Assembly (NCBI GenBank): GCA_030017685.1
Contig: JASEHH010000007.1
Span: forward strand, 1,824 to 65,823
Length of the DNA: 64,000 nt
DNA from: Thermodesulfobacteriota bacterium
Lineage (GTDB): Bacteria; Desulfobacterota; BSN033; UBA1163
Direction: 5' to 3'
Part shown: positions 34,668-64,000 of the stretch, piece by piece
Layout of the letters: each line of letters opens with the position of its first letter
Numbering within the stretch: the first letter of the stretch is position 1
The notes under the pieces: generated by a model
Databases searched by the model: none
What the model was told of the DNA's origin: nothing
What the model saw: the letters and a program-made list of their open reading frames with translations, nothing else
Made by a program: the position numbers and the translations under genes

Positions 34668-35183
34668 CTTGGGAGTACAAGAATGCAATCGACTATAAAA
34701 GGTATTTAGGGGGACTAAATGCTCTTAAGATTAGCGGCACAAAACTTGCTTCTCTCTCCCTCCTCTCTCTTCTCTTGTTGCCTGCCTAAAACGCACGATC
34801 TCTCTCACCTTAATTGGAATTAAGGGGGTGAGCGAGGAGTTGGAACTATCTGTTTTCATTATATCTAAAAAATTGCTTCATACCTTAAACCTTAATATAA
34901 CAGAAAAAAATAAGACAGTTTTTGTGGAGGAATTCATGGATCGCTTTTTCACCGGGCATTTTTGAACAGATGGGGCAAGATCAGTATTGCTTTGCTTATA
35001 ATCTGAATTGTGATTGTGGCTGGTTTAAGGATTGTTATTTCAGTGAGAAACTATCTATAAGGAAAGAATTCCAAAACAGGACATTCAAGTAAGGCGGCTG
35101 CCTGCCTGAGTTGATCAAAAGATTTTTGGGATGAGACACTTAATCTGTGTAATCAGATAATCTTTTCCCATGGAGAAGACAAA

Positions 35184-36215
35184 ATGAGCGGCGAAGTTAA
35201 AACAAAAAAGTTATTCCAATATACATATCTTCTTTTGATAGGGGGAGTCATAGCGCTACTGGTTGGTTATTTTTGGCTCAGTCAGAAACAACAAAGACCA
35301 GGTGAGCCGCTTGAAAAAGTAACCCTTGCTGAACCAACCCAACCAAGTGCGGGACCTGTATATATCGCTTACATAAAAGGCTACTTCAAAGATGAAGGGC
35401 TTGATGTAACGCTTCAACCTCACACATCAGGAAAGGCCGCCCTCAATGCAGTATTGGAGGGAAAAGCAGATTTAGCAGTTGTTGCAGAAACCCCGATCAT
35501 GTTTGCTGTGATGAGGGGAGAGAAAATATACGCGATAGCTACACTATTTACCTCGGAGAAAAATATGGCGATTATTGCGAGAAAGGATAGGAAAATTTCT
35601 CTACCCGCCGACCTTAAAGGCAAAAGAATTGGAGTGAGTATCGGGACAAATGGAGAGTTCTTCATGGATGCGCTCTTAGTGATGCATGGAATACCTGTGA
35701 AAGAAGTTAAAGCAGTTAGTTTGACACCGGAGGAAATGTTTGACTCTTTAGTAAAAGGTGAAGTTGATGCCGTATCAACCTGGCACCCCCACCTGATCCG
35801 CTTACAAAAGAAATTTGGTGAAAGGGCAATAACATTCTACGGCGATGGGATATATACCTGGACATTTAACGTCGCTGTCATGCAAGAGTTTGCTCATAAA
35901 AATCCAGAAGTTATTCAAAGGGTTCTCCGGACTCTGATTAAGGCGGTAGAATTTATTAGAGAAAATCCAGATGAATCGCGCAAGATCATAGCAGACTATA
36001 TCAGGATGGATGAATCCCTGCTTCGTGAACTATGGGGCATCTATAACTTCGGCATAACGCTGGAACAATCTCTTTTAATAAACTTAGAGAATCAAACGCG
36101 ATGGGCAATAAAGAACAAGTTAACCGATAAAACAAAGGTTCCAAACTACCTTAATTTTATCTATCTTGACGGGTTGAAGGCGGTGAAACCTGAAGCGGTG
36201 ACAATTATCAGGTGA
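35184..36215 (+). CDS. membrane-anchored NMT1/THI5/SsuA-like periplasmic substrate-binding protein (copy 1)
   Basis: N-terminal transmembrane helix followed by an ABC-type substrate-binding fold. It is 100% identical at the protein level to the ORF at 62762..63793 on the minus strand. Confidence 0.7.
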   Translation: MSGEVKTKKLFQYTYLLLIGGVIALLVGYFWLSQKQQRPGEPLEKVTLAEPTQPSAGPVYIAYIKGYFKDEGLDVTLQPHTSGKAALNAVLEGKADLAVVAETPIMFAVMRGEKIYAIATLFTSEKNMAIIARKDRKISLPADLKGKRIGVSIGTNGEFFMDALLVMHGIPVKEVKAVSLTPEEMFDSLVKGEVDAVSTWHPHLIRLQKKFGERAITFYGDGIYTWTFNVAVMQEFAHKNPEVIQRVLRTLIKAVEFIRENPDESRKIIADYIRMDESLLRELWGIYNFGITLEQSLLINLENQTRWAIKNKLTDKTKVPNYLNFIYLDGLKAVKPEAVTIIR

Positions 36216-36221
36216 TGAATT

Positions 36222-38618
36222 ATGAAGATTAGGACCAGACTACAAATTATCGCAATCTTTTCTTTAGCAATAGCCCTTGTAATCGGCTTAGTTCTCTTTC
36301 TGACAGCTCAGAGGGTGAATAAAGAAATTAGTGGGCTAAAAATAGCAGATGAGATAGCAAAAGGGGTATTTGAGCTGAATATCATAACTTATGAATATTT
36401 ATTACACCATGAAGAGCGGATGCAGACACAGTGGCAGTTAAGGCATGACTCTCTAACGAAGTTGCTAACAGGGGAAGAATTCAAAAGTCCCGAAAGGCGA
36501 CTTATTTTAGACAGGATGCATCAGAATCTTGAGAGCCTTAAAGCTCTTTTTTCCCAACTGGTCGAAAATTACAAAAGGCGTGGGAGAAAAGAATCTGCTC
36601 TGTCACGGGAATTAGAAGAGAGATTGGCGGGCCAGTTATTGGTGAAGTCTCAAGCTATGGTTTCTGATGCCTCGCAGTTGGCCGAGGCAAGTCGGGCAGA
36701 GGTAGCAATTGCTCAACAAAGGTCCAGTCTGCTTGTTATGGTGTTTGTTGCAATCATGGCAGCAATTATTGCAGCGGTTTCATTTATGTTTGGCAGAAGT
36801 GTTGTAAAGCCGATCAGGAAGCTCCACGAGGGAACCGAAATCATCGGCGCTGGCAATCTGGATTACAGGGTGGGCACAACCGCAAAGGATGAGATCGGCC
36901 AGCTTTCCAGGGCATTTGATGAGATGATCGGAAAGCGCAAGCGTGCAGAGGAAGAAGTTCGACTCCTCCAAACCATCACATTTGCGATCAGCGAAACCGG
37001 AGATGTTCATTCCGCATTGAAGATTGTGCTCCAGAAGGTGTGTGAAGCTACAGGGTGGATCATGGGGGAGGCATGGGTTCCCAATTCTGATGGGACAAAC
37101 CTCGAATGCAGTCCAGCGTGGTATAGCAGGGTGGAAGGTCTGGAGAAATTTAGAAAGGAATCAGAGAAGTTTACATTCCCTCTCGGGATCGGACTTCCTG
37201 GCAGGGCCTGGTCTTCTAAGAAACCCGTATGGGTGGGAAATGTTACTCTGGATTCGAATTTTCCGAGAGCGGAGATTGCGAAAGGAGTTGGTCTCAAAAC
37301 AGCGATGGCCATTCCTGTTCTCATCGGCGACGAGATTGTTGCAGTGATGGATTTTTTTGTTTTCGAAGCCCGGAAAGAGGATGAACGACTCCTTGAAATC
37401 ATTTCATCGGTTGCCAGTCAATTGGGGTCCCTCATTCAGAGAAAGCGAGCGGAACAAGAGGTAAGAGTCCTGGAAGAACAACTTCGGCAGTCTCAGAAGA
37501 TGGAGGCCATTGGTCGTTTGGCGGGCGGCATTGCCCATGACTTCAATAATCTCCTGACCATTATAAAGGGTTATAGCCAGCTCTCCTTCGGTGAACTCAA
37601 AGAGGGCGATCCCCTGAGAGAAAACATCGAAGAGATCAGAAAAGCGGCGGATCGGGCCGCAGACCTGACCCGGCAACTGCTTGCCTTCAGTCGCCGCCAG
37701 GTGATGGAGGTGCAAGTTCTTGATCTGAACACCGTCTTAAAGAACCTGGATAAGATGCTCCGTCGGATGATCGGTGAAGACATCGAACTGACGACTTTAT
37801 TATTTGAGGATTTGGGAAGAGTCAAAGCCGATCCCGGACAGATTGAGCAGGTGATCATGAACCTTATAGTCAATGCAAGGGATGCGATGCCCCGGGGAGG
37901 AAAACTCACCATTGAGACGGCCAATGTGGAATTGGATAAGGAGTATGCCCGTACTCATGTCGCAGTGACTCCGGGTCCACATGTGATGCTTGCGGTAAGT
38001 GATACAGGGGTGGGAATGACTCCAGAAATCAAGGCAAAGATCTTTGAACCATTCTTTACGACCAAAGAGAAGGGAAGGGGGACAGGGTTGGGTCTTTCGA
38101 CCGTCTATGGGATTGTGAAACAGAGTGGGGGAAATATCTGGGTTTACAGTGAGCCTGGAAGAGGAACAACATTTAAGATTTATCTGCCGAGAGTGGATGA
38201 GCTTGCTGAGGAATTAAGAGTGAAGGTTGAGGGACCAGAACTTCCCAGAGGTAGTGAGACCATTCTCATCGTTGAGGATGATGAAAAGGTCCGGAAACTG
38301 GCTCTAAAGATATTGGAGAAGCAAGGATATGAGGTATTGGAGGCGGGAGGCGGAAATGAGGCTCTTGAGATTTGTAGGGGTTTGGAAAAGCCTATTCATG
38401 TTGTCCTCGCCGATGTGGTAATGCCCGGCATGGATGGTCGCCAGTTTGCGGAGAAACTGAGGGAAGTTTGTCAGGGGTTTAAGGTCCTTTATATGTCGGG
38501 CTATACGGATAATACCATTGCCCACCACGGGATTCTTGATGAGGGGTTGGATTTTATTCAGAAGCCTTTGTCCGTGGATGGACTGGTGAGAAAAGTCAGA
38601 GAGGTGTTGGATAAATAA
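36222..38618 (+). CDS. hybrid sensor histidine kinase (transmembrane - HAMP - GAF - HisKA - HATPase_c - receiver), copy 1
   Basis: 798 aa. The first roughly 240 aa and last roughly 400 aa are near-identical to the 60494..62755 protein. The central GAF-like segment ([15 protein letters not shown]...GIGLPGRAW...[17 protein letters not shown]) is unique to this copy. Confidence 0.85.
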
Positions 38619-38737
38619 TTCTTGAGGGTTTCAACCTAAGCTTTTTTATCATCAGATCAACCTCGATCAACGAGCCCCTATTTGAATTATGGTTTTTCAC
38701 GGTTAGGTTTAGATATTTTTAGCCACGGACATCCGAA

Positions 38738-39097
38738 TCATTTTTTAGAATTTAAAATTTCCTCCACCAAAATCTTCATACTCGAGAGATCTAAGGGTTT
38801 TGCCAGAAAGGCATCGGCTCCTGCTTCTCTGAAAAAAGGTTCTCCCACCCCGGACCCAGAAATTATCAAAATCGATAAGGAAGGGTCGTACCCCTTTAGG
38901 CGTCTTATTAATTCAATTCCATCCATTTTGGGCATCATATAATCTGTTACCACCAGATCGTATCCCTTTTCCTTCACCTTTTTCATCGCCGTCTCACCAT
39001 CTTCAACGGTATCCACCTCATATCCATTTAAAAGAAAATATTTCGATAAAAGATTTCTTATCTCTTTATGATCCCCGACGACCAAAATTCTTTTCAT
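38738..39097 (-). CDS. single-domain response regulator (CheY-like receiver)
   Basis: MKRILVVGDHKEIRNLL...DLVVTDYMMPKMDG. The acidic pocket and the phospho-accepting D were recognised. Confidence 0.8.
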   Translation of the reverse strand: MKRILVVGDHKEIRNLLSKYFLLNGYEVDTVEDGETAMKKVKEKGYDLVVTDYMMPKMDGIELIRRLKGYDPSLSILIISGSGVGEPFFREAGADAFLAKPLDLSSMKILVEEILNSKK

Positions 39098-39238
39098 CAC
39101 GTTAACTCCATTTAACAGATATCTTAAAATTACAACCAATAATTGTAATTGTCAAGAACAAAATACAACCATAGGTTTATGGACATTCTCCTCATGTCCA
39201 CTATAAATGGTGAATGAAATCGTTTAGGGTGATATATT

Positions 39239-39667
39239 ATGATAAAAACTCATAAGGAAATAGGCAGCGAGATCAAGAGAATACGAAAAGCCTTGGGGAT
39301 GTCTCAGATGAAGTTGGCTGAAGGGGTAGGGGTTTCCTTTCAGCAGATCCAGAAATATGAAAAGGGTGTAAATAAAATTTCCATGGAGATGATCCAGCAT
39401 ATAGCGAGGGCTTTGGGTATTTCAGTAAACACATTTTTTGAGAAAGAAAAGGCGCCCGTCATATCAGAACCTCCCATGAAATATTACTCTAAAAAGAAGA
39501 ATTTAATAGATGAGATTTCTTTACCATTAAATCAAGAGGAAATCACGCTGCTCCAACTTTTTCGAAAGATTGAAAACAAGAAAATCAGGGAAGGGCTGAT
39601 CAAGCAATTGAGTGGGATCGTAGAATTAGAAAGGGAAAAAAGCGTATCAAATCATTTAACCAGGTAA
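39239..39667 (+). CDS. XRE-family helix-turn-helix transcriptional regulator
   Basis: IKRIRKALGMSQMKLAEGVGVSFQQIQKYEKG is a canonical Cro/C1 HTH. Confidence 0.8.
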   Translation: MIKTHKEIGSEIKRIRKALGMSQMKLAEGVGVSFQQIQKYEKGVNKISMEMIQHIARALGISVNTFFEKEKAPVISEPPMKYYSKKKNLIDEISLPLNQEEITLLQLFRKIENKKIREGLIKQLSGIVELEREKSVSNHLTR

Positions 39668-39765
39668 CCCAAATTGTCTCTGTTGAATCGTCAAAAATGT
39701 AACCGCAGAGGGTAACAGTCTTTTATAGGGGTTAACTATAGGGGTTAACCCTTTCCGTTCTTTTA

Positions 39766-39892
39766 CCCCGTTAGAAATAATGCCCCGCTGCTCCCTCCGG
39801 GCCAGAGGCCCTCTGGGCCGGCGGCTGTAGTGGGGTTACATTTCAGATTAATTCCGGTGGGGTTTAATGTCCCGCTGGAATTTCTAACGGGG
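39766..39892. repeat. MITE-like element, family A (ends CCCCGTTAGAAAT / ATTTCTAACGGGG, internal palindrome CCGGGCCAGAGGCCCTCTGGGCCGG)
   Basis: 127 bp. Both ends match the 75-bp element at 838-912. Related modules occur at 41703-41810. Confidence 0.5.
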
Positions 39893-40341
39893 TTTACTCT
39901 TCTTTTCGTATACCTCCTCCCACCTACCGCTCTTCTAAGGCCTCAGGAGCCTGTCAATCGTTGCCGAACCTATATCAAACAACTTCTTTGCAAGAGCATC
40001 CGATATCCTCAGCTCACCCATACCTCTTAAACCCTCTCTAACTCCGCCTCAATGATTGGCCTCAGTCTCTGCTCGCAGGAATGGCCAAAGACTTTCCACA
40101 GATTGAATGCATATCCACCCTCCACCTGTCCATGTAAACCAACTTCCATCGAAAGGATTTGGATTACATTTTAGATGATTTAATGCGGTTTGTTGACAAA
40201 TTATTTGAATTCCATTATTATTGGTCAAAATAATTTGGGTTAAAAATGGTTTAAGTTTTTTTTACTGTAGAGTGAAAGCTACAAACTATGCAGAACTACC
40301 CGATTTTTAAAGATTATCATAACTGTATCTAAAAGAGAAAC

Positions 40342-40569
40342 GTGTACCGCAACTTTGAAGAAATCTTGACAAAGGCAAAAGAACGAGGCCCTTGTAGGGT
40401 TTCCATCCTCTTCCCTGATGACCCGGATATTATGCGGGTGGCAGTAGACGGAATGAGGGAGGGACTGATTGAGCCTGTTTTGGTGGGCCATTATAAGCGG
40501 ATCAAGGCAATAGCCCAGGAGGCAAATTTACCCCTAAAAAATAGGTGCTTCCTGTTTTTGAATGGGTGA
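40342..40569 (+). pseudogene. duplicated 5' fragment (about 65 codons plus upstream region) of the phosphate butyryltransferase gene at 49630
   Basis: 40300-40545 is about 93% identical at nucleotide level to 49588-49830, including about 45 nt upstream of the start. The reading frame ends after 75 codons (...NRCFLFLNG). Confidence 0.6.
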
Positions 40570-40795
40570 CCCCTATTATATAATAGTGGTTGAAGTTAGG
40601 CGGCTGCTCTGACGGGCTATGTGGGAGCCCATTTTCGCAGCCAAAATCTGAAAAGGATAAAGAATTCGTAAATGTTATTTTGCCGTCTTAACTGTCTCCA
40701 CCAGTTTGGACCATTTGGAAATTTGGTATCGTAATTTATTTCGTATCTTGTATTTTGTGCTTCTGATTTATTCTTGTCCGGGTTAGGAGGGAAAA

Positions 40796-41656
40796 ATGGA
40801 GATGAAAAGAGTGTGTGTCGTGGGTATGGGAACCATGGGGAGTCAAATCGGTATTGTCTGCGCCAGGGCTGGATTTCAGACCTTCATGGTAGATATCTTA
40901 GAGGAGCAGGTAGGAAAAGGACTACAAAGTATAGAGTCCTTTTTAAAAACCCAAGAGAAAAAGGGGAAAGTGGATAGGGAGGCAATTGATAGGATCTCAT
41001 CTTTTATTAAGACCGGCATAGATATGGGAGAGGCCCTCTCTGATGCTGACCTTGTAATTGAGGCAGTATACGAGGACATAAAAGTGAAAAAGGAGGTTTT
41101 TAAAAAAATGGATGAGGTGAGCCCGAGCCGAACAATTTTTGCCAGTAATACCTCGACCCTTTGGATTGCCGAACTGGGTGCGGTGACAGATCGTCCAGAA
41201 AAGTGCATCGGTACTCACTTTTTGATCCCTGCAGCACTCACGCCCCTTGTAGAAGTTGTCCGGAGCATTGAAACCTCAGACGAAACCCACGAGACAGTGT
41301 TAGAGTTTCTTCGAAAGTGTGGAAAGGAGACTGTAACAGTTGCAGACTCCCCTGGTTTTGTCATCAATAGACTCTACCTGCCAATGGTGAACGAGGCATT
41401 TTTTGCGCTTGAAACAGGTCTTGCCAGTGCCGAAGAGATTGACAGGAGCTGCACGAGAGGTCTCGCGTTTCCGCTAGGTCCCTTGGCGGCTGCAGATGCC
41501 TTTGGCTTAGATATACTGCTTGCCTCCATGGAGACTTTCCATAGGGAACTGGGGGAGAAATATCGGCCTGCTCCCCTGCTTGTAAAACTGGTCAAGGCCG
41601 GTCGTCTGGGAAGGAAGACAGGACGAGGCGTTTATAACTACAGTAAACCCCATTAG
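40796..41656 (+). CDS. 3-hydroxybutyryl-CoA / 3-hydroxyacyl-CoA dehydrogenase (NAD-binding)
   Basis: VCVVGMGTMGSQIG Rossmann motif, plus the conserved FASNTS and HF.P motifs. Confidence 0.85.
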   Translation: MEMKRVCVVGMGTMGSQIGIVCARAGFQTFMVDILEEQVGKGLQSIESFLKTQEKKGKVDREAIDRISSFIKTGIDMGEALSDADLVIEAVYEDIKVKKEVFKKMDEVSPSRTIFASNTSTLWIAELGAVTDRPEKCIGTHFLIPAALTPLVEVVRSIETSDETHETVLEFLRKCGKETVTVADSPGFVINRLYLPMVNEAFFALETGLASAEEIDRSCTRGLAFPLGPLAAADAFGLDILLASMETFHRELGEKYRPAPLLVKLVKAGRLGRKTGRGVYNYSKPH

Positions 41657-41702
41657 AAAGTCTTCGACTTTCCAACGGGGAGGCTCATTCACCCCTTTAG
41701 AG

Positions 41703-41810: not shown

Positions 41811-41830
41811 GTAGTGGAGGAAGATTTAAA

Positions 41831-42979: not shown

Positions 42980-43013
42980 AAAATGGAAATCAATTAATTA
43001 GCAGGGAGGAAAA

Positions 43014-44840: not shown

Positions 44841-45799
44841 ATGGAGCAGAAACTTGCATATTATGAGATTAGGGATCAAATCGCTATTGTCACCATCGAT
44901 CATCCTCCCATGAATGCCTTGGATGCGGCCACGAAAGAGGCCATTGTCGATGTATTCAAGGAGCTTGATGACCGGAGACAAGAAATCAGAGCAGTCATAT
45001 TACACGGGGCAGGAGAGAAAGCGTTTGCCGCGGGGGCTGATATCAAGACATTTTTGGAATTAAAACCCGGCACGGCCAAGAGACGTATTTCCCGTACTCA
45101 TCAAATTTATTCCATGGTCAGAGCCGTCCAAATTAGCTCGAATTCTTATGACTACCCCTTGAAATTATTACCTTTTTGGACAAGTTTTGGCTGTTTTGAA
45201 AATCAGGTTTCCTTTTTCTTTTTTTATGTATCCATTATGCTGTCCAAAATAGGCCGTTTTTAAAAACCTAATTTGGACAAGAGTGTTCCATGGTAGAAAA
45301 TTTTGAGTGGCCTGTGATCGCTGCGATCCATGGTTTTTGTTTAGGTGGGGGTCTGGAACTGGCACTCTGTTGCGATATCCGTTACGTGGAAGAGACTGCC
45401 AAATTAGGTTTTCCTGAAGTCAATCTATCCGTTTTTCCGGGAAACGGAGGGATATGGCGCTCTATGTATCATATCCCTCTGGGGAAATTGAAGGAATTGG
45501 TTTACAGCGGCGAGATGATCGATGCGATGGAGGCATTCAGGCTCGGTTTGGTGGAAAAGGTTGTTCCACCGGGGCAGGTGATGGTCGCTGCCATGGAGCG
45601 TGCCGCCAAGATTATGGAGAAAGGTCCTTTGGCCGTGGCAGCGGCTAAGAAAGTGATCAATCGGGGCAGAGACCTCTCACTTCAACATGGACTGGAACTT
45701 GAGTCTGAACTCTGGGCCAATCTAACAGCCACAGAAGATATGAAAGAGGGCGCCCGGGCCTTTATCGAGAAGAGAAAACCAGAATATAGAAATCGATAA
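44841..45799 (+). pseudogene. enoyl-CoA hydratase/isomerase (crotonase) gene interrupted by a 167-bp MITE
   Basis: The two ORFs (44841..45263 and 45290..45799) together encode one crotonase-fold protein. The fold appears when 45119-45294 is removed: ...THQIYSMV|ENFEWPVIAAIHGFCLGGGLELAL.... Confidence 0.7.
45119..45285. mobile_element. 167-bp MITE (ends CAGAGCCGTCCAAATTAG / CTAATTTGGACAAGAGTG) with 9-bp target-site duplication TTCCATGGT
   Basis: Direct repeats TTCCATGGT sit at 45110-45118 and 45286-45294. Imperfect terminal inverted repeats with an 11-bp perfect core GTCCAAATTAG. There is no ORF of useful size inside. Confidence 0.7.
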
Positions 45800-47124: not shown

Positions 47125-47358
47125 ATGTTCTTCGAACTGAATGATGAGCAGAAGGAGTTTCAAAGAAAGGTTCGGGAAATTTACGAGAGAGAAGTAGGCC
47201 CTCTGGTCGAGGAGTACGGGAAAAAGGAGGCCTTCCCGATTCAACTCTTCCGAATACTGGGGGAAGAAAGACTTCTGTGTCTCCGGTGTCCCGAGAAATA
47301 TGGCGGGCCTGGTTTGGAAAAGATTTCTGAATGTATCTCGAGGGAGTTGGGGCTTTAG
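47125..47358 (+). pseudogene. N-terminal remnant (about 75 aa) of an acyl-CoA dehydrogenase gene
   Basis: MFFELNDEQKEFQRKVREIYEREVGPLVEEYGKKEAFP is a typical ACAD N-terminal domain start. The ORF stops after 77 codons. Confidence 0.5.
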
Positions 47359-47368
47359 GGGGAAGAGG

Positions 47369-48217
47369 ATGGATTTTGAATTATCCGATGAGCAGAAGGA
47401 TGTTCAAAAAGCGGCGATGGAGTTTTCCAAAGGGGAGTTCGATCCGGATCTTGCCCTGGAACTGGATCGGAACGGGCAGTTCCCAGAATTGATATGGAAG
47501 AAGGCCTGCCAGTTAGGATTCATTGGGATTCATTATCCTGAGGAGTTTGGAGGTCAGGGGTTGGGCCTCTTTGAGACTCTTCTGGTCATCGAAGCATTCT
47601 GCAGGGTTGACTCTGGAATTGGGGGCGCTCTGAGCACTGTAGATTTGGGCTCAGAGGTCATTCTAAAATTCGGTTCCCATGAACAGAAAAAAGATTTTCT
47701 TCTTCCCTTGGCAAGAGGAGAGAAAAGGTTGAGCGTTGCCTTTGCCGAATCGGAAGATGGGAAAGACCTCTCCTCCGTCTCCACTGTTGCAGAGAGAAGG
47801 GGTGAGGGGTACCTCATCCATGGGAGAAAAAGGTTTGTGCTCAATGTTTCTTTATCAGATGCCTTCATCAATCGTTGCAAGGAGCCCAAAGAAGGGTGGA
47901 TCACTTTGATTGTAAAGAAAGAAAATGGTGGGATGGAAGTCCATCCTATTGAGAAGATGGGGTTGAGGATGATTCCATTTGGAGATCTTCACTTCAAAGA
48001 AGTACGGGTGCCCCTTGAGAGTCGGGTGGGACGTGAAGATGAAGGGAGGGTCCATGCTCACCACTGCCATCAGGCGATGGAACTCAAAAGCGTTGCTAAA
48101 TCTTTCTCCTTCCCGCCCTACTCTAAATTATTTGGGGGGAAGTGTCTCACTTTCATTGGCACAGAGGGTAAGCGGCGGGGAATAAGCCCTAAAGTGATTC
48201 AAGGAGGTACAAGATGA
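47369..48217 (+). pseudogene. acyl-CoA dehydrogenase lacking a recognisable C-terminal catalytic domain (truncated or degenerate)
   Basis: It starts MDFELSDEQKDVQKAAMEF with good N-terminal and middle domains (GFIGIHYPEEFGGQG...AFAESEDGKD). After about 230 aa the sequence loses ACAD character (..GRVHAHHCHQAMELKS..) and ends at 283 aa. Confidence 0.45.
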
Positions 48218-49344
48218 TTGATTTTTCGTTTACTAAAGAGCAAGAGGAGTTCAGGGAAAAGGTAAGGGAGTTTGCCCAGAAAGAGGTAGAGCCAAGAAGG
48301 AAAGAATGGGATAGAGAGGGAAAATCGGCCCTGCCCATAAACGAGAGGCTTGCAGCATGGGGCCTTTTAACAGCGGATATGGACAATATCACCAGGGGCA
48401 TCCTTACGGAAGAGGTCGCTTATGTGGACTTTAACAGCGCCATGCCCTTAGTGTGGGCTACCATGCCATTTGTTTTACATCAACTCCCCGGAGTGCCGGA
48501 AGAGGTTAAAAAGCCGATCCAGGAAGGGATACTGAGTGGCAAGAGCTTTCTTGCGCTCTGTTTCGCTGAGTCGGGTGCGGGTACGGATATGGCCGGAATC
48601 AAGACCTCGGCAGTGAGGGATGATGAAGGATGGGTCATAAACGGCACCAAGAATACCATTAGCTGGGTGAATGCCGATTACTATTTTGTCTGTGCCAAGA
48701 CGGGAGATGAGGAAGAAGGGATATGGGCCCTAACCAATTTTCTGGTGCCTGCCTCTTTTCCCGGTGTCAGCAAACCCAAGATATGGAAGGATATGGGATC
48801 TAAGGGGGCGGTTCGAGGTACGGTCAATTTTACGAATGTGAGGGTCCCGTTGAACTATATGATCGGGGAGATGGGCAAGGGTTATCTTTTGGCTGCAGAG
48901 TTCTTTGACACCAATCGTGCGTTTATCGGCCTAAAATGCATTGGAGCGGCCCAGGCCTCTGTGGACGAGTCATGTCTATATGCCAAAAAGAGGGGAGTTA
49001 TGGGGAAGCCTATCGCCGGATATCAGGCCATCAGTTTCCCCCTTGCCGAGGCCCAAACCCTGCTCGAAGCAGCCAGGTTGTTGTGCTACAAGACACTCTG
49101 GATGGCGGATAAGGGAGTACGGCACACCACCGAAGGGGCTATGTGCAAGTGGTGGATTCCGGAGATCACCTTTGAGATCGTGCGCAAGGGCCTCCTTACA
49201 CATGGTCAGTATGGCTATACCGAAGAACTTCCTTTTGAACAGAGGCTGAGGGACATCCTCGGCTGGCAGATAGGTGATGGCACGGCGGAACCGTCCAAAC
49301 TCCTGATTGCCAGGAGTATGATGGGCAAAGAGTATGTGGGCTAA
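48214..49344 (+). CDS. acyl-CoA dehydrogenase (intact)
   Basis: 376 aa and complete through the C-terminal domain (...ILGWQIGDGTAE). Confidence 0.85.
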   Translation: MIDFSFTKEQEEFREKVREFAQKEVEPRRKEWDREGKSALPINERLAAWGLLTADMDNITRGILTEEVAYVDFNSAMPLVWATMPFVLHQLPGVPEEVKKPIQEGILSGKSFLALCFAESGAGTDMAGIKTSAVRDDEGWVINGTKNTISWVNADYYFVCAKTGDEEEGIWALTNFLVPASFPGVSKPKIWKDMGSKGAVRGTVNFTNVRVPLNYMIGEMGKGYLLAAEFFDTNRAFIGLKCIGAAQASVDESCLYAKKRGVMGKPIAGYQAISFPLAEAQTLLEAARLLCYKTLWMADKGVRHTTEGAMCKWWIPEITFEIVRKGLLTHGQYGYTEELPFEQRLRDILGWQIGDGTAEPSKLLIARSMMGKEYVG

Positions 49345-49629
49345 ATAAAAGGATAAGGAATGACCGTTTTTGGCTACGTAGTGGAATTAAGTTAAGCAGA
49401 TTTTGTGTGGGGTTTTTTTCATCCTGATTTAATCTAATCCTAATTAATGCCAAAAACTAAAAATTGAGGGAAAGGGGGTTATTGTCCCCCTGGAGATTTA
49501 TTCAACTAACATTTGGACAGTAGTGGTATTCCATTATTATTGAATAAAATCATTTTAGAGTAAAACTTGCCAAGTTACCAGAACTATTTAATTTTTAAAG
49601 ATTATCATAACAGGATCTAAAAGAGAAAC

Positions 49630-50511
49630 ATGTACCGCAACTTTGAAGAAATCTTGACAAAGGCAAAAGAACGAGGCCCTTGTAGGGTTTCCATCCTCTT
49701 CCCTGATGACCCGGATATCATGCGGGTGGCAGTAGATGGAATGAGGGAGAAACTGATTGAACCGGTTTTGGTGGGCCATTATAATCGGATCAAGGCAATA
49801 GCCCAGGAGGCAAATTTGCCTCTAAGCAAAATAGAGATTCGGGAAAAGAAAGATCCTCAGGAAGCGGCCAATTTATGTTTGGATATGGCGAAGAAAGGGG
49901 AAGTTACCTTCGTGGTCAAGGGCAATATTTTGACGACATATCTTTATAAGGCATTGATCAGGATTACCAAGAAGTTCTCGCTTGATCAGATACCTTGCGC
50001 ACTCTGTTTCCATCACATCGCGGGTATTGAGAAGATCTTTGTCATTACTGACGGTGGAGTAAACATCCACCCCAATCTCGAAACGAAAAAGAAGATTCTC
50101 GCCAACGCCATAAGCGTATTACAGAGGCTGGGTTGTAAACGACCTCGAATAATGATCCTTGCCGCCCCTCGCTTCCTTGATGAAGCCTCTTCTTATTCTC
50201 GGGATGCTGACATTCTTCGAAGACTGAGCCTGGGGGGAGACCTGGGCCAGTGTGAGATAGATATTGCTAAAAATCTCCACGAGGCCTTCCCTGACAGGTC
50301 CATACGAACGGAGACATTCCCTGACGTTTTTCTGGTTCCCAATATCGAAACTGGAAACATCCTGGTCAAGAGTATTGATCATCTGGGCATAGGCATACGC
50401 CAATGTGTGACGGTCGGAGCAGGTATATTTGTCCTTACCCCCTCACGATCAGATGGATATGAGGCCCGTATGATGAATTTATCACTGGGAATCGTCCTTG
50501 CCACATCATGA
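49630..50511 (+). CDS. ptb: phosphate butyryltransferase / phosphotransacylase (PTA_PTB family)
   Basis: 293 aa in the PTA_PTB fold, followed by a second ptb-like gene and a butyrate kinase. Confidence 0.75.
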   Translation: MYRNFEEILTKAKERGPCRVSILFPDDPDIMRVAVDGMREKLIEPVLVGHYNRIKAIAQEANLPLSKIEIREKKDPQEAANLCLDMAKKGEVTFVVKGNILTTYLYKALIRITKKFSLDQIPCALCFHHIAGIEKIFVITDGGVNIHPNLETKKKILANAISVLQRLGCKRPRIMILAAPRFLDEASSYSRDADILRRLSLGGDLGQCEIDIAKNLHEAFPDRSIRTETFPDVFLVPNIETGNILVKSIDHLGIGIRQCVTVGAGIFVLTPSRSDGYEARMMNLSLGIVLATS

Positions 50512-55988: not shown

Positions 55989-56031
55989 TGGTTATACGTG
56001 ACAGGAAAAAATTTCTTTTGAGAGGGAAAAG

Positions 56032-57072: not shown

Positions 57073-57241
57073 CCCCCTTTGGGTCACTCCTTTTTCTACA
57101 AAAATTTTTAGTGGGACAAACTTCTACTTATAATGTTTCTTGAAATACCCCAACCAACTATCAACAGCGGCACGCAACATCAATGTGTCTTGCTTTTCTT
57201 ACTACCGCAGCACAGCTATTTTGAAAGGTGGTTAACAAGTC

Positions 57242-58216
57242 ATGGAAGTGAATTCTAAGAGGTCCATACAAATACCAGCGAGAGATACCAGGTCAAGAGG
57301 CAAAACCATCAAAGGATGGATCCAACTATCCCGCCCCCCATTTCATCTGGTGGGTCTGCTTCCGTTTGTCCTGGGTGCGCTGTTAGCCTGGTATATATAT
57401 GGGGTGTTCAACTGGACTGTTTTTGTTTGGAGCACAGCCGCCGTACTCTTAATTATGCTTTCTACCTACTATAGCGGAGAGTATCACGACCTTAAAGAGG
57501 ACAAACTCTCTGCCGAGATTGAGAGGAATGTTTTTTCTGGTGGAAGTCAGGCTATAGTAAAGAATCTGATGTCCCATAAACAGGCTAAAATCGCCGGATA
57601 CGTAACACTGGTTCTGGCAGGAATAATCGGGCTCATCCTTCATTTCTATTACAAGACTGGCTTTTGGACAATTCCGCTAGGGGTTATTGGCATGACCGCC
57701 GGATTTTTCTATTCCACCCCGCCGCTACGTTGGGTAAAGAGAGGAGTCGGGGAGATTATCATTGGGTTCTGTTACGGATGGCTTCCGGTGGCTACTGCCT
57801 TCTATCTACAGACTGGCACGATAGACAATATTGTCCACTGGATTTCCATCCCCATCGCCTGCACTATCTTCAATGTAATCCTCATAAACGAGTTTCCGGA
57901 CTATCCCGCTGATATGAGTGAGGGGAAAAGGAATCTGGCGGTAAGGCTGGGGAAAGACACCGCCGCCTTCCTTTATATCGCGATGACAGTCATCGCCTGG
58001 ATCGCGTTCGGATTGGCGGTGAGTCAGGGGTTGCCAGCGGTGGGCTTACTATTCTACCTTCCGGTTTTCTTAATTGCCTTGTGGTTAGTTTTTTTGATAT
58101 CTAAAAAGGATTACCTCAATAAAAAGCGGCTGGAGTTGATTTGCGGACTCACTATAGTTGTCAATCTGGGGACCGCACTGGCATATATTCTGGCTCTCTG
58201 GTTGGGAGGTTTTTAA
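57242..58216 (+). CDS. UbiA-family aromatic prenyltransferase
   Basis: A polytopic membrane protein with the UbiA-type Asp-rich motif region (YYSGEYHDLKED). Confidence 0.75.
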   Translation: MEVNSKRSIQIPARDTRSRGKTIKGWIQLSRPPFHLVGLLPFVLGALLAWYIYGVFNWTVFVWSTAAVLLIMLSTYYSGEYHDLKEDKLSAEIERNVFSGGSQAIVKNLMSHKQAKIAGYVTLVLAGIIGLILHFYYKTGFWTIPLGVIGMTAGFFYSTPPLRWVKRGVGEIIIGFCYGWLPVATAFYLQTGTIDNIVHWISIPIACTIFNVILINEFPDYPADMSEGKRNLAVRLGKDTAAFLYIAMTVIAWIAFGLAVSQGLPAVGLLFYLPVFLIALWLVFLISKKDYLNKKRLELICGLTIVVNLGTALAYILALWLGGF

Positions 58217-58222
58217 GTCAAA

Positions 58223-59449
58223 ATGCAAAGACCCTCCATATTCAATTGGCCGCTAAAATCAATATTCTGGCCCCCAAGTTTAATAGCAAAACAACTGGGA
58301 AGCGTGCTCTATTTGAAACATCTGCTCAAATGGAACAAATTCCCATCCTGGTTCCTCAATCATAGTATTAAGTCCTTACCTGTGGCTGCCGGTTCCCTCG
58401 GTATGGGCTGCATTGGTTTCCCGCCGCATCCAGCCTGGGAGGTGACGGCCGCCTGCAATCTGCGCTGTATACATTGCCATGCAGCGAGCAGCAAACCAGC
58501 CAGAGACGAACTGACAACCGATGAAGCTAAAAGATTCATAGACGAGTTGGCCAGGATAGATGAATTTCGGACGCTGGTCTATACCGGCGGAGAGCCTTTG
58601 GTGCGCCCCGACCTGCTCGAACTTCTGCAGTATTCCCAAAAGGCTGGCCTGACCAATGTTATCGCTACCAACGGCACCTTGATAAACGAGGAGGTCGCCT
58701 TTAAGCTCAGGGAGGTTGGCGTCGTCGGGGCAGCAGTCAGCCTCGATTCCTCACAGAGTGCAATCCATAATCATATCCGTAGAAACGATAATGCTTTTGA
58801 ACTGGCCATGCGAGGCATACAAGCATTAAAAAAGGCGGGCATTCTCTTGCAGATAAACGTTACGGCGATGGAGTACAACTTCTCCAGTCTTGACGAATTG
58901 ATTGAGCTAACTGATAGAGAGGGGGCAGGGATTATGCTGATGTATCAATTGGTGCCAGTGGGGCGAGGAAGCTCTATTGAAGAGGCCACGCTCGATGTCA
59001 ACCAAAACGAGAAATTGCTGAAATTCTTAGCCCGCAAGCAGAGAGAGGTTTCCACCATCATCGAACCTGTGGCTGGCCCTCAGTACTGGCCCTATTTAAT
59101 CGAGCAGCGTGGCAAGTCGAATGGCATCTGGTTCAAACTTGCCGAGCAATTATTCCACGGCTGTGCCGCAGGCCGAGGATTCGTTTACATTAAAGCCAAT
59201 GGCGATGTGTGGCCCTGTCCCTTTGTGGGAATAAATGCTGGGAATGTTAGAATGAAATCTTTCGAGAACATCTGGCAGCATGGCGAGGTGTTTGTCAATT
59301 TGAGAAAACGAGAGCATATACTGAAAGGGGACTGTGGCAAGTGCAAATATCGAACGATATGTGGCGGGTGCCGCGGGCGGGCCTTAGCCTATCATGGGGA
59401 CTATCTGGCTGAAGACCCCTCGTGTTTTCTGCATTCCAAATCCTGTTAG
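58223..59449 (+). CDS. radical SAM protein with C-terminal SPASM-like Cys cluster (true start probably near 58403)
   Basis: CNLRCIHC (CxxxCxxC), then a C-terminal cluster CPFVG...CGKCKYRTICGGCRGRA. Confidence 0.75.
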   Translation: MQRPSIFNWPLKSIFWPPSLIAKQLGSVLYLKHLLKWNKFPSWFLNHSIKSLPVAAGSLGMGCIGFPPHPAWEVTAACNLRCIHCHAASSKPARDELTTDEAKRFIDELARIDEFRTLVYTGGEPLVRPDLLELLQYSQKAGLTNVIATNGTLINEEVAFKLREVGVVGAAVSLDSSQSAIHNHIRRNDNAFELAMRGIQALKKAGILLQINVTAMEYNFSSLDELIELTDREGAGIMLMYQLVPVGRGSSIEEATLDVNQNEKLLKFLARKQREVSTIIEPVAGPQYWPYLIEQRGKSNGIWFKLAEQLFHGCAAGRGFVYIKANGDVWPCPFVGINAGNVRMKSFENIWQHGEVFVNLRKREHILKGDCGKCKYRTICGGCRGRALAYHGDYLAEDPSCFLHSKSC

Positions 59450-59610
59450 ATTCTAATCATCCCAATTTGATCACAAAGGTAGGAAAGTTCGTTTCAAGTA
59501 TAAACGACTCCTTAAAATCATAAAGGGTTTACTATAGGCTTGACATTGGGGAGGGGAATTGGGTATCTCTAAAGCATGGGCAGCAAAATACTTTTTACCC
59601 TGAAGGAGAA

Positions 59611-60471
59611 ATGATGGAACTCGTGCGCAAGGTATCCGGGATGCAGGGAATATCTGATAGGCTGATGAAGGAAGGAAAAAAAATTGGGTTCGTCCCGACC
59701 ATGGGGTATCTCCACGAGGGACACCTATCTTTGGTCAGAAAGGCAAAAGAGTTATGCGATTCTGTGGTGGTCTCAATATTCGTTAATCCCACTCAATTTG
59801 TACCGGGAGAAGATTATGAACGATATCCCCGTGATGAAGAAAGAGACAGGGTGTTACTTGATGCGGCAGGCGTTGACTTCCTTTTTATCCCAGAAGTGAT
59901 GGAGGTGTATCCCTCCGGATATCAGACCTATGCGGAGGTGACAGAAGTTTCAAAAGGACTCTGTGGCAATTTTAGACCGGGGCATTTCAGGGGTGTCGCT
60001 ACGGTCGTGGCCAAGCTTTTTAATATGGTGAAACCACACCTGGCCGTTTTTGGAGAGAAGGATTTCCAGCAGCTCCTTGTGATTAAAAGGATGGTTGAGG
60101 ATCTGAATTTTGATATTGAAATCATCCCAGGAGTCACCGTGAGAGAAGAGGACGGCATTGCGATGAGCTCAAGAAATGCCTATCTTTCTCCTGAAGATAG
60201 GAAAAAGGCTGCGGTTCTCTATCGATCTCTTATGAAAGGGAAAGAGTCTTTTGAATCCGGTGAGAGGCATGCCTCCATCCTATGCAGAACTGTTAAAGAT
60301 AGCCTGGAATCGGTGAGTGGGATTTCTTTTCAATATGTGGAGATTCGGGACGCTGGAACACTCGAGAAAATCGAGGTAGTTAATCGGCCTACCGTGATTG
60401 CCCTTGCTTCAATCGTGGGAGGTGTGAGGCTCATCGATAATATCATCATTGGCAGGGAGAAACCTTTCTGA
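59611..60471 (+). CDS. panC: pantoate--beta-alanine ligase
   Basis: VPTMGYLHEGHLSLV HIGH motif and FGEKDFQQL. Confidence 0.9.
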   Translation: MMELVRKVSGMQGISDRLMKEGKKIGFVPTMGYLHEGHLSLVRKAKELCDSVVVSIFVNPTQFVPGEDYERYPRDEERDRVLLDAAGVDFLFIPEVMEVYPSGYQTYAEVTEVSKGLCGNFRPGHFRGVATVVAKLFNMVKPHLAVFGEKDFQQLLVIKRMVEDLNFDIEIIPGVTVREEDGIAMSSRNAYLSPEDRKKAAVLYRSLMKGKESFESGERHASILCRTVKDSLESVSGISFQYVEIRDAGTLEKIEVVNRPTVIALASIVGGVRLIDNIIIGREKPF

Positions 60472-60493
60472 TATTTGTTGCCTTGAATTAGGA

Positions 60494-62755
60494 TTATTTA
60501 TCCATTACTTCCCTCACTTTTCTGACCAGTCCTTCCACAGATAGGGGCTTCTGGATAAAGTTCAACCCGCTTTCAAGAATACCGTGATGGGAAATGGCAT
60601 TATCCGTATAACCCGACATATAAAGAACCTTAAAACCATGACAGACTTCCTTAAGCTTCTCAACCAGTCGGCGACCATCCATTCCAGGCATCACCACATC
60701 GGTCAGGACAAGATGTATAGGCTTTTTCCCCTCCTTACCAATCTCAAGGGCCTCATCTCCGCTTCCCGCTCCCAGCACCTCATATCCATGCTTCTCCAAT
60801 ATCTTCATGGCGAGTTTCTGGACCTTCTCGTCGTCCTCAACGAGAAGGATGGTCTCACTGCCACGGGGAAGCTCCCTTTGAACCACCTTCTCACCCACCT
60901 CCTCCGGAGGCTCATCCACTCGCGGAAGGTAAATTTTAAAGGTCGTCCCTTTCCCCGGCTCACTATAGACCCAGATGTTTCCGTCACTCTGTTTCACGAT
61001 TCCATAGACAGTCGAAAGACCCAATCCCGTTCCTTTCCCCTTTTCTCTAGTCGTAAAGAAGGGCTCAAAGATCTTTTCCTTGACTTCCGGAGTCATCCCC
61101 ACTCCGGTATCGCTTACGGAGAGCATCACGTAAGGTCCCGGCTTCACTGCAATATGATTGCGGGCATAATTCTCATCCAGTTCCACATTGGATGTCTCAA
61201 TGGTGAGTTTCCCTCCCTTCTGCATCGCATCTCTCGCATTGACCGCAAGGTTCATCACCACCTGCTCGATCTGTCCGGGATCGGCCTTCACCATTCCTAA
61301 ATCATCTGCCAATAGAGTAACCAGCCCGATATCCTCACCAATGACCCGTTGTAACATCTTATCCAGATCTCGTAAAATGGTGTTGAGATCTAACACTCTC
61401 ATCTCCAACACCTGGCGCCGGCTGAAGGCCAAAAGTTGTCGGGTGAGAGCGGCTGCCCGGTCAGCCGCATTCTGAACCACCTCGATATTTTCTCGCAAAG
61501 GATCACCTGCTTTCATTTCCATGAGGGAGAGCTGACTGTTTCCCTTGATGATGGTGAGAAGATTGTTAAAATCATGGGCCACCCCACCGGCTAACTGGCC
61601 AATGGCCTCCATCTTCTGAGACTGACGAAACTGTTCTTGAAGGACACGCTTTTCTTCTTCCGCACGCTTGCGTTCGGTAATATCACGGACAATATGGACA
61701 ACGCCTTTCATCGCTCCGGAGTTATCGTGGATTGGATCTACCGTTACCTGAAGCCAGATCCCTCGCTCTCCATCGTAGAATTCAAAATCTTCACGGATAT
61801 TGGTTTGTCTCACCCGTTTAAAGGGACATCCCTCAATAAAATCAGATGTGCAATGAGCAATTCTGTAACAATGTTTGCCTAATACGTCTTCGGTTTTTAT
61901 TCCCAATAAACGTTCATAAACTCCGTTTGATTGTATGACTCTTCCTCCTGAGTCAAGAAGCCATATGCCATCTGATATTGCATTGAAAGTATTTTTCCAG
62001 TTTTCCAATGCTATTCCTAATGCCTCCTCGGCCTGCTTGCGCTTTCCGATCATCTCATCAAAAGCCCTCGAAAGCTGTCCAACCTCATCCTTTGCGGTTG
62101 TGCCCACCCTGTAATCCAGGTTGCCAGCGCCGATGATTTCGGTTCCCTCGTGAAGCTTCCTGATCGGCTTTACAACACTTCTGCCAAACATAAATGAAAC
62201 CGCTGCAATAATTGCTGCCATGATTGCAACAAACACCATAACAAGCAGACTGGACCTTTGTTGAGCAATTGCTACCTCTGCCCGACTTGCCTCGGCCAAC
62301 TGCGAGGCATCAGAAACCATAGCTTGAGACTTCACCAATAACTGGCCCGCCAATCTCTCTTCTAATTCCCGTGACAGAGCAGATTCTTTTCTCCCACGCC
62401 TTTTGTAATTTTCGACCAGTTGGGAAAAAAGATCTTTAAGGCTCTCAAGATTCTGATGCATCCTGTCTAAAATAAGTCGCCTTTCCAGACTTTTGAATTC
62501 TTCCCCTGTTAGCAACTTTGTTAGAGAGTCATGCCTTAATTGCCACTGTGTCTGCATCCGCTCTTCGCGGTGCAATAAATATTCATAAGTTATGATATTC
62601 AGCTCAAATACACCCTTGGCTATCTCATCTGCTATTTTGAGTCCAATAATTCCTTTATTCACCCTCTGAGATGTCAGAAAGAGAACTAAGCCGATTGCAA
62701 GGGCTATTGCTACAGAAAAGATTGTGATCATTTGTAGTCTGGTCTTAATCTTCAT
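60494..62755 (-). CDS. hybrid sensor histidine kinase (transmembrane - HAMP - PAS - HisKA - HATPase_c - receiver), copy 2
   Basis: 753 aa. It is the paralog of 36222..38618 but carries a PAS-like segment ([31 protein letters not shown]...) in place of the GAF segment. Confidence 0.85.
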
Positions 62756-62761
62756 AATTCA

Positions 62762-63793
62762 TCACCTGATAATTGTCACTGCTTCAGGTTTCACAGCCTT
62801 CAGCCCGTCAAGATAGATAAAATTAAGGTAGTTTGGAACCTTTGTTTTATCGGTTAACTTGTTCTTTATTGCCCATCGCGTTTGATTCTCTAAGTTTATT
62901 AAAAGAGATTGTTCCAGCGTTATGCCGAAGTTATAGATGCCCCATAGTTCACGAAGCAGGGATTCATCCATCCTGATATAGTCTGCTATGATCTTGCGCG
63001 ATTCATCTGGATTTTCTCTAATAAATTCTACCGCCTTAATCAGAGTCCGGAGAACCCTTTGAATAACTTCTGGATTTTTATGAGCAAACTCTTGCATGAC
63101 AGCGACGTTAAATGTCCAGGTATATATCCCATCGCCGTAGAATGTTATTGCCCTTTCACCAAATTTCTTTTGTAAGCGGATCAGGTGGGGGTGCCAGGTT
63201 GATACGGCATCAACTTCACCTTTTACTAAAGAGTCAAACATTTCCTCCGGTGTCAAACTAACTGCTTTAACTTCTTTCACAGGTATTCCATGCATCACTA
63301 AGAGCGCATCCATGAAGAACTCTCCATTTGTCCCGATACTCACTCCAATTCTTTTGCCTTTAAGGTCGGCGGGTAGAGAAATTTTCCTATCCTTTCTCGC
63401 AATAATCGCCATATTTTTCTCCGAGGTAAATAGTGTAGCTATCGCGTATATTTTCTCTCCCCTCATCACAGCAAACATGATCGGGGTTTCTGCAACAACT
63501 GCTAAATCTGCTTTTCCCTCCAATACTGCATTGAGGGCGGCCTTTCCTGATGTGTGAGGTTGAAGCGTTACATCAAGCCCTTCATCTTTGAAGTAGCCTT
63601 TTATGTAAGCGATATATACAGGTCCCGCACTTGGTTGGGTTGGTTCAGCAAGGGTTACTTTTTCAAGCGGCTCACCTGGTCTTTGTTGTTTCTGACTGAG
63701 CCAAAAATAACCAACCAGTAGCGCTATGACTCCCCCTATCAAAAGAAGATATGTATATTGGAATAACTTTTTTGTTTTAACTTCGCCGCTCAT
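62762..63793 (-). CDS. membrane-anchored NMT1/THI5/SsuA-like periplasmic substrate-binding protein (copy 2)
   Basis: Protein identical to 35184..36215, and the nucleotide sequence is identical where spot-checked. Confidence 0.7.
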   Translation of the reverse strand: MSGEVKTKKLFQYTYLLLIGGVIALLVGYFWLSQKQQRPGEPLEKVTLAEPTQPSAGPVYIAYIKGYFKDEGLDVTLQPHTSGKAALNAVLEGKADLAVVAETPIMFAVMRGEKIYAIATLFTSEKNMAIIARKDRKISLPADLKGKRIGVSIGTNGEFFMDALLVMHGIPVKEVKAVSLTPEEMFDSLVKGEVDAVSTWHPHLIRLQKKFGERAITFYGDGIYTWTFNVAVMQEFAHKNPEVIQRVLRTLIKAVEFIRENPDESRKIIADYIRMDESLLRELWGIYNFGITLEQSLLINLENQTRWAIKNKLTDKTKVPNYLNFIYLDGLKAVKPEAVTIIR

Positions 63794-64000
63794 TTTGTCT
63801 TCTCCATGGGAAAAGATTATCTGATTACACAGATTAAGTGTCTCATCCCAAAAATCTTTTGATCATCTCAGGCAGCCGCTTTCCTTGAATGTCCTATTTT
63901 GGAATCCTTTCCTTATAGATTGTTTCTCACTTTTTTCGATATAATGAAAACAGATAGCTCCCAATCCTCGCTCCCCCCCTTAATTCCAGTTTAGATGAGT

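Follow-up and report, generated by a model that had tools for sequence, protein, structure and literature searches.

Inverted sensor operons with a near-identical input half and different cytoplasmic sensor modules in a Thermodesulfobacteriota bacterium

Two copies of a unit that pairs a periplasmic binding-protein gene with a hybrid histidine kinase gene lie in inverted orientation in the 64,000 nt of Thermodesulfobacteriota bacterium contig JASEHH010000007.1 analyzed here (the window, whose numbering is used throughout), and enclose a segment rich in genes of beta-oxidation type. The arrangement raises the question of how the two copies came to resemble each other, and whether the repeat renders the enclosed segment a mobile island or a DNA switch. 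The original prediction described an inverted duplication of about 3.8 kb flanking a catabolic island, open to recombinational inversion and recently subject to gene conversion. We consider it likely that these are two paralogous two-gene sensor operons, convergent and inverted, in which the input half has been homogenized by gene conversion while the kinases retain different internal sensor modules. The locus reveals no new mechanism: it is an instance of a well-known kind of bacterial paralog evolution, and is neither a mobile island nor a demonstrated DNA switch.

Self-comparison and self-BLAST confirmed the inverted repeat where it had been predicted, with copy 1 at 34804-38622 (+) and copy 2 at 60490-64000 (−). 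It comprised four inverted arm pairs: 35102-36952 versus 62025-63875 (1851 nt, 98% identity), 37443-38622 versus 60490-61669 (1180 nt, 77%), 34804-34875 versus 63928-63999 (72 nt, 88%), and 35042-35104 versus 63869-63931 (63 nt, 92%). Thus, while the duplication of 3.8 kb is real as an inverted repeat, it is not uniform, since a non-homologous center of ~490 nt in copy 1 (36953-37442) and 355 nt in copy 2 (61670-62024) interrupts it, and the final 1180 nt, which stop 4 nt beyond both stop codons, are only 77% identical. The longest perfect run inside this 3′ tract was 26 nt, making it a poor recombination substrate. The noncoding regions upstream of the binding-protein genes (34804-35183, +, in copy 1; 63794-64000, −, in copy 2, where the window end cuts it) are related and carry indels, as had been predicted, being ~88-92% identical apart from ~166 nt (34876-35041) that are present in copy 1 and missing from copy 2. 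Similarity does begin at 34804 (GGAATTAAGGGGG...), but this base pairs with window base 63999/64000, and the left limit is therefore an effect of the window edge rather than the true end of the repeat.

A 100-column identity profile and an ungapped mismatch list of both copies exposed a mosaic within the 1851-nt arm, which has 34 mismatches in total. The longest perfect tract (35112-36173 versus 62804-63865, on opposite strands) spanned 1062 nt, with 72 nt of noncoding leader followed by 990 nt from the start of the binding-protein gene. Three synonymous differences follow near the 3′ end of that gene (36174, 36182, 36197), such that the predicted identity over at least 1 kb holds for the proteins and for the perfect run but not for the complete genes. 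The kinase gene then opens with 313 nt that hold 24 mismatches, a second perfect tract of 279 nt lies in the kinase input module (36545-36823 in copy 1), and beyond it the copies diverge increasingly (~8%) until kinase codon 244-247. Given 34 mismatches in the 1851-nt arm, the probability that uniform mutation leaves a perfect run of 1062 nt or more is ~1e-7, which excludes a chance origin of the run.

Synonymous (dS) and nonsynonymous (dN) divergence, estimated by the Nei-Gojobori method for three segments of the aligned copies, followed the same layering. The binding-protein gene had dS 0.013 and dN 0, residues 1-244 of the kinase dS 0.12 and dN 0.024, and the C-terminal 388 residues dS 1.18 and dN 0.13, so that synonymous divergence varies ~90-fold along one contiguous unit. 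On these sequence comparisons, only the ~2-kb input half is recently shared between the copies. Synonymous sites and the noncoding leader are identical as well, which rules out selection at the protein level as the cause, and the features expected of concerted evolution were found together, namely inverted paralogs with identity tracts that cover synonymous and noncoding sites and are bounded by diverged sequence. Because divergence is uneven along the unit, with perfect tracts alternating with stretches of ~8% divergence, gene conversion, or other recent recombinational transfer between the copies, is strongly indicated, in agreement with the conversion that had been proposed at the outset.

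The two binding-protein genes, at 35184-36215 (+) and 62762-63793 (−), encode the same 343-aa protein, an NMT1/THI5-like class II periplasmic binding protein of the SsuA/TauA type (Pfam PF09084, E 2e-39) that also matched Phosphonate-bd weakly (PF12974, E 8.7e-8). The TIGR01728 SsuA_fam model gave 130 bits, under its cut-off of 163.5, and no NCBIfam equivalog model passed its cut-off for this protein. Its sequence relatives in the PDB (3qsl, 6ssy, 2x26) are sulfonate-, taurine-, and nitrate-binding proteins, and a hydrophobic N-terminal membrane anchor is apparent in the amino acid sequence. In both copies the kinase gene follows after a 6-nt gap, and a domain scan of the neighboring window genes found no ABC permease or ATPase gene beside either binding-protein gene.

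The kinases, of 798 aa (kinase 1) and 753 aa (kinase 2), are both full-length open reading frames (ORFs) with the domain order of a first transmembrane helix (TM1), periplasmic region, second transmembrane helix (TM2), HAMP (aa 190-236), cytoplasmic module, HisKA, HATPase_c, and receiver. HisKA, HATPase_c, and Response_reg scored above their Pfam cut-offs in both, as expected of hybrid histidine kinases. An AlphaFold2 model of residues 1-250 of kinase 1, built with 23 homologs (mean pLDDT 88), predicted a four-helix bundle between TM1 and TM2 that runs into HAMP, an extracytoplasmic domain of the kind expected in binding-protein-dependent kinases. By Foldseek, the best match of this model was the sensor-TM-HAMP fragment of NarQ (5jgp, E 6e-6), followed by weaker matches (E ~1e-2) to the N-terminal domain of LytS in the XylFII-LytS complex and to QseE in the QseG-QseE complex; a sequence search of the periplasmic domain against the PDB yielded no significant match.

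Although the whole hybrid kinase gene had been described as duplicated, only the first 244 residues, comprising TM1, the four-helix bundle, TM2, and HAMP, proved to be shared (231/244 residues identical), encoded at 36222-36953 (+) in kinase 1 and at 62024-62755 (−) in kinase 2. Downstream, kinase 1 has a GAF module (36954-37442, +; Pfam GAF_2, E 7.8e-13) without homology to the matching part of kinase 2, in which a PAS module (61670-62023, −; Pfam PAS, E 1.3e-11) occupies the same slot. The transmitter and receiver halves (HisKA, HATPase_c, and Response_reg; 37443-38618, +, and 60494-61669, −) are 77% identical at the nucleotide level and 79.3% identical at the amino acid level. A database search with this half retrieved at least 8000 proteins at E < 1e-60, the best of which were 74-76% identical and were unrelated metagenomic proteins with many different sensor domains; by NCBIfam score the module is CckA-like, below cut-off. 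Because 79% between the copies barely exceeds the 74-76% found to unrelated kinases of the family, the 3′ similarity, as read from these searches, is ordinary family-level paralogy in a very conserved and hugely expanded module.

The limits of these segments fall on a repeated linker. The motif RK(R/Q)AEE occurs twice in each kinase, after HAMP (aa 239) and before HisKA (aa 407 in kinase 1, aa 362 in kinase 2). Its first occurrence marks the end of the near-identical tract and its second the start of the 77% tract, with GAF or PAS in the slot between; the GAF module of kinase 1 is bracketed by RKRAEE at aa 239 and 407. GC content at third codon positions (GC3) was 0.34 in the PAS module, 0.49 in the GAF module of kinase 1, 0.40-0.46 in the input modules, and 0.53-0.55 in the transmitter halves, contrasts that are compatible with separate histories of the modules. 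The PAS value is exceptionally low for the window, against ~0.5 in neighboring genes; the module is compositionally foreign, and it includes a Cys/His-rich stretch that could be a cofactor or redox site. The gene for a third, soluble hybrid kinase at 33083-34192, upstream of copy 1, was evaluated as a third copy of the repeat and rejected, given that its product is ~30% identical and has no input module. The conserved histidine of HisKA, H439 (AHDFNN), and the conserved aspartate of the receiver, D731 (DVVMPGMDG), are invariant in the alignment of the three kinases.

The likely history, two distinct operons with a homogenized input half, would run as follows. The input cassette would have been copied between, or homogenized across, two already distinct kinases by homologous recombination. 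One or more older events would have left ~10% synonymous divergence, later gene-conversion tracts would have produced the perfect runs of 1062 and 279 nt, and conversion would halt where homology ends, at the linker before GAF or PAS. In function, the binding protein would bind an extracytoplasmic ligand and dock on the periplasmic four-helix bundle of the kinase, as XylFII does on LytS. The signal would proceed through TM2 and HAMP, be modulated by a cytoplasmic cue at GAF or PAS, and govern both autophosphorylation and phosphotransfer onto the fused receiver. In this way the cell would sense one external ligand via two kinases, each of which also integrates a different internal cue.

A single recent segmental duplication, in which an input cassette of ~2.2 kb (leader, binding-protein gene, and 5′ end of the kinase gene) was copied once before an existing kinase and thereafter changed by plain mutation with no continuing conversion, is the alternative that fares best, and we regard it as unlikely. 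The shared segment does stop sharply at a domain linker, the lower GC3 of the input modules relative to the transmitters hints at separate histories, and the transmitter halves are merely family-level paralogs, all of which a single copying event would accommodate. However, the divergence is uneven (0/1062 nt, 24/313 nt, 0/279 nt, then ~8%), and an upstream noncoding region of ~90% identity with an indel sits beside a perfect gene. The perfect run has P ~1e-7 under uniform mutation, and no fewer than two recombinational events that differ in age are required.

Several points also weigh against homogenization between two distinct operons. The closest relatives of the binding protein in genome and metagenome scans are only 64-66% identical (71-75% over partial fragments), such that neither the polarity of conversion nor inversion is observable by comparison. 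Two routes are indistinguishable here, one being transplantation of the input cassette with later conversion, the other duplication of the whole operon with later 5′ homogenization and a domain swap. Tandem cassette paralogs in relatives (loci L015, L032, L029, and L005) diverge ordinarily, at 40-61% aa identity, and homogenization of the cassette is therefore specific to this genome rather than a general feature of the family. Finally, no Hpt gene was seen that would serve a phosphorelay from the kinases.

A more elaborate proposal holds that the kinases are a deliberately coupled sensor pair. Ongoing conversion would keep their external inputs (binding protein and four-helix bundle) identical, such that two kinases gated by different cytoplasmic signals (GAF versus PAS) report on a single extracellular ligand. 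Occasional RecA-mediated flipping of 25-29 kb would swap the promoters, reverse the fatty-acid and butyrate operons with respect to replication, and yield heritable subpopulations, and the cassette would represent a widespread class of binding-protein-dependent sensors that has so far gone uncharacterized. We judge this improbable as a whole.

A further alternative is that the interval is a functional invertible segment. Under this hypothesis, recombination would flip a catabolic segment of ~25 kb, or exchange the promoters of the kinases, as a heritable source of population heterogeneity. Inversion by homologous recombination is in itself possible in principle, as for tufA/tufB (PMC5485169), since a kilobase of perfect inverted identity (1062 nt) makes a legitimate substrate for a RecA-type crossover. 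Crossover in the perfect tract would invert everything between the 3′ parts of both binding-protein genes, turning round ~25-29 kb; it would leave every gene and both operons intact and exchange the two differing promoter/upstream regions, and ~20 genes would end up opposed to the orientation of the flank. Inverted paralogs with gene conversion and potential inversion are textbook bacterial genome dynamics, and pairs such as tufA/tufB exist without any role as a switch. Moreover, the repeats are whole genes on the kilobase scale with graded identity, not recombinase sites of tens of nucleotides, and all genes of the interval but one match the left flank in strand and GC skew, fitting a stable orientation. 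Since the skew tracks the coding strand throughout, even in minus-strand copy 2, it does not discriminate a past inversion. The main ORFs scanned across the window, including those next to and inside the segment, contained no invertase, integrase, transposase, or other site-specific recombinase domain, the nearest thing being an excisionase-family helix-turn-helix ORF. Taken together, these observations make a functional invertible segment very unlikely.

The excisionase-like ORF (34446-34667, +; 73 aa; TIGR01764, 48.9 bits versus a cut-off of 28.8) sits in an AT-rich 1-kb spacer upstream of copy 1, and no partner integrase gene is present. A sigma-54-like motif, TGGCATATATTTTGCT, lies nearby at 34382; such matches are at chance level in the window (24 versus 23.9 expected), and scans for sigma-70 promoters and terminators were likewise at chance level overall. 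Farther upstream, ahead of the soluble hybrid kinase gene, a GC-rich (~62%) block of ~275 nt in an AT-rich intergenic region (32737-33010, +) showed unusually strong folding on the plus strand (z-score −4.5) and less on the minus strand (−2.2). It matched no Rfam family at gathering score (a c-di-GMP-I-GGC riboswitch was sub-threshold at 32737-32784, with 25.7 bits versus 59), and may represent a structured RNA, or a leader, of no described class.

The interval between the copies (38619-60493; 21,875 nt) is encoded on the plus strand apart from its first gene, a receiver-only gene (38738-39139, −), which is followed by an XRE regulator. Next come two 3-hydroxyacyl-CoA dehydrogenases, acyl-CoA dehydrogenases, an amidohydrolase, a split enoyl-CoA hydratase, and a thiolase, with two gene sets of beta-oxidation type in the interval, and then two ptb genes with buk, a MarR regulator, an ADP-forming acyl-CoA synthetase, and a PNPOx-like gene. 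The interval ends with purM (450 bits versus a cut-off of 236), a UbiA-family gene, a radical-SAM/SPASM gene, and panC.

That this is a horizontally acquired catabolic island, or a unit resembling a composite transposon mobilized by its bounding inverted repeats, is suggested by the enclosure of beta-oxidation, ptb/buk, and acyl-CoA synthetase genes, and an insertion resembling a miniature inverted-repeat transposable element (MITE) in a hydratase gene, along with an internal duplication of a 300-nt promoter/ptb segment, would fit such mobility. The composition, however, did not set the interval apart. Mean GC3 was 0.51 ± 0.05 for 20 interval genes versus 0.54 ± 0.06 for the left flank (Mann-Whitney P = 0.10), and GC content was 0.42-0.49 versus 0.43-0.54, making the two indistinguishable. 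Furthermore, purM, panC, and the UbiA-family and radical-SAM genes inside are of housekeeping type, the repeats encode sensor proteins rather than insertion sequences, and the window scans that had found no transposase or integrase also revealed no tRNA gene, nor anything in Rfam at gathering thresholds. The catabolic island of the original prediction is not supported, and we consider acquisition as a mobile unit highly improbable.

The least probable explanation, to which we give almost no credence, is a collapsed or chimeric assembly repeat that produced a false second copy: ~1 kb of perfect identity can resemble a mis-joined repeat and copy 2 lies at the window edge with its far side outside view, but the copies run on into different, intact, in-frame sequence (GAF versus PAS, then transmitters of 77% identity), both kinases are full-length ORFs, and 34 differences are scattered over the 98% arm beside the upstream indel.

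Within the interval, a direct repeat of ~300 nt (40202-40544 and 49521-49834; 90-91% identity) comprises a promoter-like region (TTGACA-17-TATTAT, 40193-40221) and the first ~65 codons of the first ptb gene. The extra ptb/promoter copy sits upstream of the hbd/acyl-CoA dehydrogenase operon and includes a 75-aa ptb remnant ORF (40342-40569). The two copies of the promoter region lie at 40193-40340 and 49521-49629, and promoter and operator may be common to both catabolic operons. The enoyl-CoA hydratase gene (44841-45799) is read as two ORFs, 44841-45263 and 45290-45799, parted by an AT-rich insertion of ~150 nt that ends in 11-nt inverted repeats, GTCCAAATTAG (45126-45136) and CTAATTTGGAC (45268-45278); this is the MITE-like element, and it is single-copy in the window. 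An acyl-CoA dehydrogenase ORF at 47300-48217 (305 aa), with N-terminal and middle domains only, overlaps the start of a full-length gene (48214-49344); it represents a truncated paralog or else one subunit of an enzyme that is heteromeric. The left flank, on the same strand as the interval, is a shikimate/tryptophan biosynthesis region in which a DeoC-type aldolase and 3-dehydroquinate synthase II (14433-16321) precede aroE, aroA, aroC, pheA, and trp genes, all on the plus strand. We take the pairing of these first two enzymes to be the alternative, archaeal-type entry to the shikimate pathway.

The input cassette extends well beyond this genome. We seeded loci with the binding protein in one-genome-per-species and metagenome collections and counted the 46 that had enough downstream sequence. 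A homolog of the four-helix-bundle/HAMP sensor lay directly downstream in ~44 of these, from many phyla, with intergenic gaps of −114 to +255 nt; conversely, the three loci seeded with the sensor all had the binding-protein gene upstream (3/3). Labels of metagenome-assembled genomes (MAGs) among the cassette loci included Nitrospiraceae/Nitrospirae, Thermodesulfovibrionales, Desulfobacterales, Alphaproteobacteria (Dongiaceae, Thalassospiraceae, Bradyrhizobium), and Gammaproteobacteria. Among 35 cassette sensors, 34 had HAMP, 26 HATPase_c, ~15 PAS, 3 GAF, 7 a receiver, 1 GGDEF, and 1 HisKA_3. By these gene neighborhoods, the input cassette is a conserved two-gene unit coupled to variable outputs, and the conserved pairing therefore supports a role for the binding protein as a co-sensor. 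Adjacency, conservation across genomes, and the lack of a cognate ABC permease or ATPase nearby are the genomic signature of binding-protein-dependent kinases and were all found here; they point to a binding-protein-dependent sensor. No characterized member was found for the pairing of an NMT1-type binding protein with a four-helix-bundle/HAMP sensor.

Homogenized kinase segments and tandem cassettes also occur in related loci. In two related MAG contigs, the 3′ halves of different kinase genes together with the next receiver gene are 83-85% identical in nucleotide sequence (L002, 2998-4160 versus 7828-8990, also 15909-16754) or 97% identical (L006, 10086-11306 versus 12669-13889), so that output modules, not input modules, are homogenized there. 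At least two cassettes occur in tandem, in direct orientation and at ordinary divergence, in L015 (1828-7402), L032 (6651-13061), and L010 (7475-18000). These tandem arrays show lineage-specific expansion of the cassette.

The locus is a clean, nucleotide-resolution case of modular evolution in bacterial sensor kinases, and what deserves note is the combination of an identical input cassette in two paralogs, a recombination boundary on a repeated signaling-helix linker, and two cytoplasmic sensors in one slot. In addition, an NMT1/SsuA-type binding protein recurs together with a four-helix-bundle/HAMP sensor in several phyla, and this pairing is a candidate for ligand discovery.

How the proposed sensor relates to known binding-protein-activated kinases can be specified. 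Co-sensing by a binding protein is an established principle, and the genes for such kinases often adjoin that of the binding protein (PMC11113362; PMC8050422). XylFII-LytS of Clostridium beijerinckii resembles the cassette in that a partner with the periplasmic binding-protein fold is encoded beside a kinase with an extracytoplasmic four-helix bundle, onto which it docks side-on (PMC8050422), and the modeled input module of kinase 1 aligns with the N-terminal domain of LytS from the complex (5xsj) at E ~1e-2 and a target TM-score of 0.80. XylFII, however, belongs to Peripla_BP_4, whereas the binding protein here is of the NMT1/SsuA type (PF09084) and its interaction with the kinase is predicted only; the kinases here differ from LytS in having HAMP, GAF or PAS, and a fused receiver. 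A 2021 review of such systems never mentions the NMT1 family (0 occurrences; PMC8050422). In AioX-AioS and TorT-TorS, too, the binding-protein gene adjoins the kinase gene and the binding protein signals rather than transports. AioX belongs to Phosphonate-bd (PF12974), the family matched weakly here, and AioS differs in its sCache-like sensor domain. TorS, likewise a hybrid kinase, has a periplasmic domain that is helical too but forms a double four-helix bundle, and TorS equivalog models scored 131-143 bits on the kinases here against a cut-off of 676.5. Sensors of the NarQ/NarX type share the order of TM1, four-helix bundle, TM2, and HAMP, and NarQ provides the best structural match to the input module (5jgp), although sequence identity is 13% and no NarX/NarQ family model matches; NarQ, moreover, needs no partner binding protein, as nitrate binds to it directly.

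For the history of the repeat, the closest parallel is tufA/tufB of Salmonella enterica, whose inverted copies of 1185 nt co-evolve by RecA-dependent conversion, with tracts blocked by large heterology and ending where homology ends (PMC5485169). Both cases have two inverted copies on one chromosome with ~1.1-1.2 kb of near-identity that includes synonymous sites. The tuf genes, by comparison, are 762 kb apart, against ~22-25 kb here, and are highly expressed housekeeping genes, whereas the unit here is a sensor input cassette. Unlike in tufA/tufB, homogenization here ends partway through a gene, on a domain linker, leaving proteins that are chimeric relatives of each other. Lineage-specific expansion and domain shuffling of histidine kinases are a general feature of two-component system evolution, and the locus conforms to it, with conserved transmitter and receiver modules on many sensors and the same input cassette on many outputs. 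What sets it apart from the general pattern is that the shuffling can be followed nucleotide by nucleotide in a single genome, the breakpoints falling on a linker motif that is repeated.

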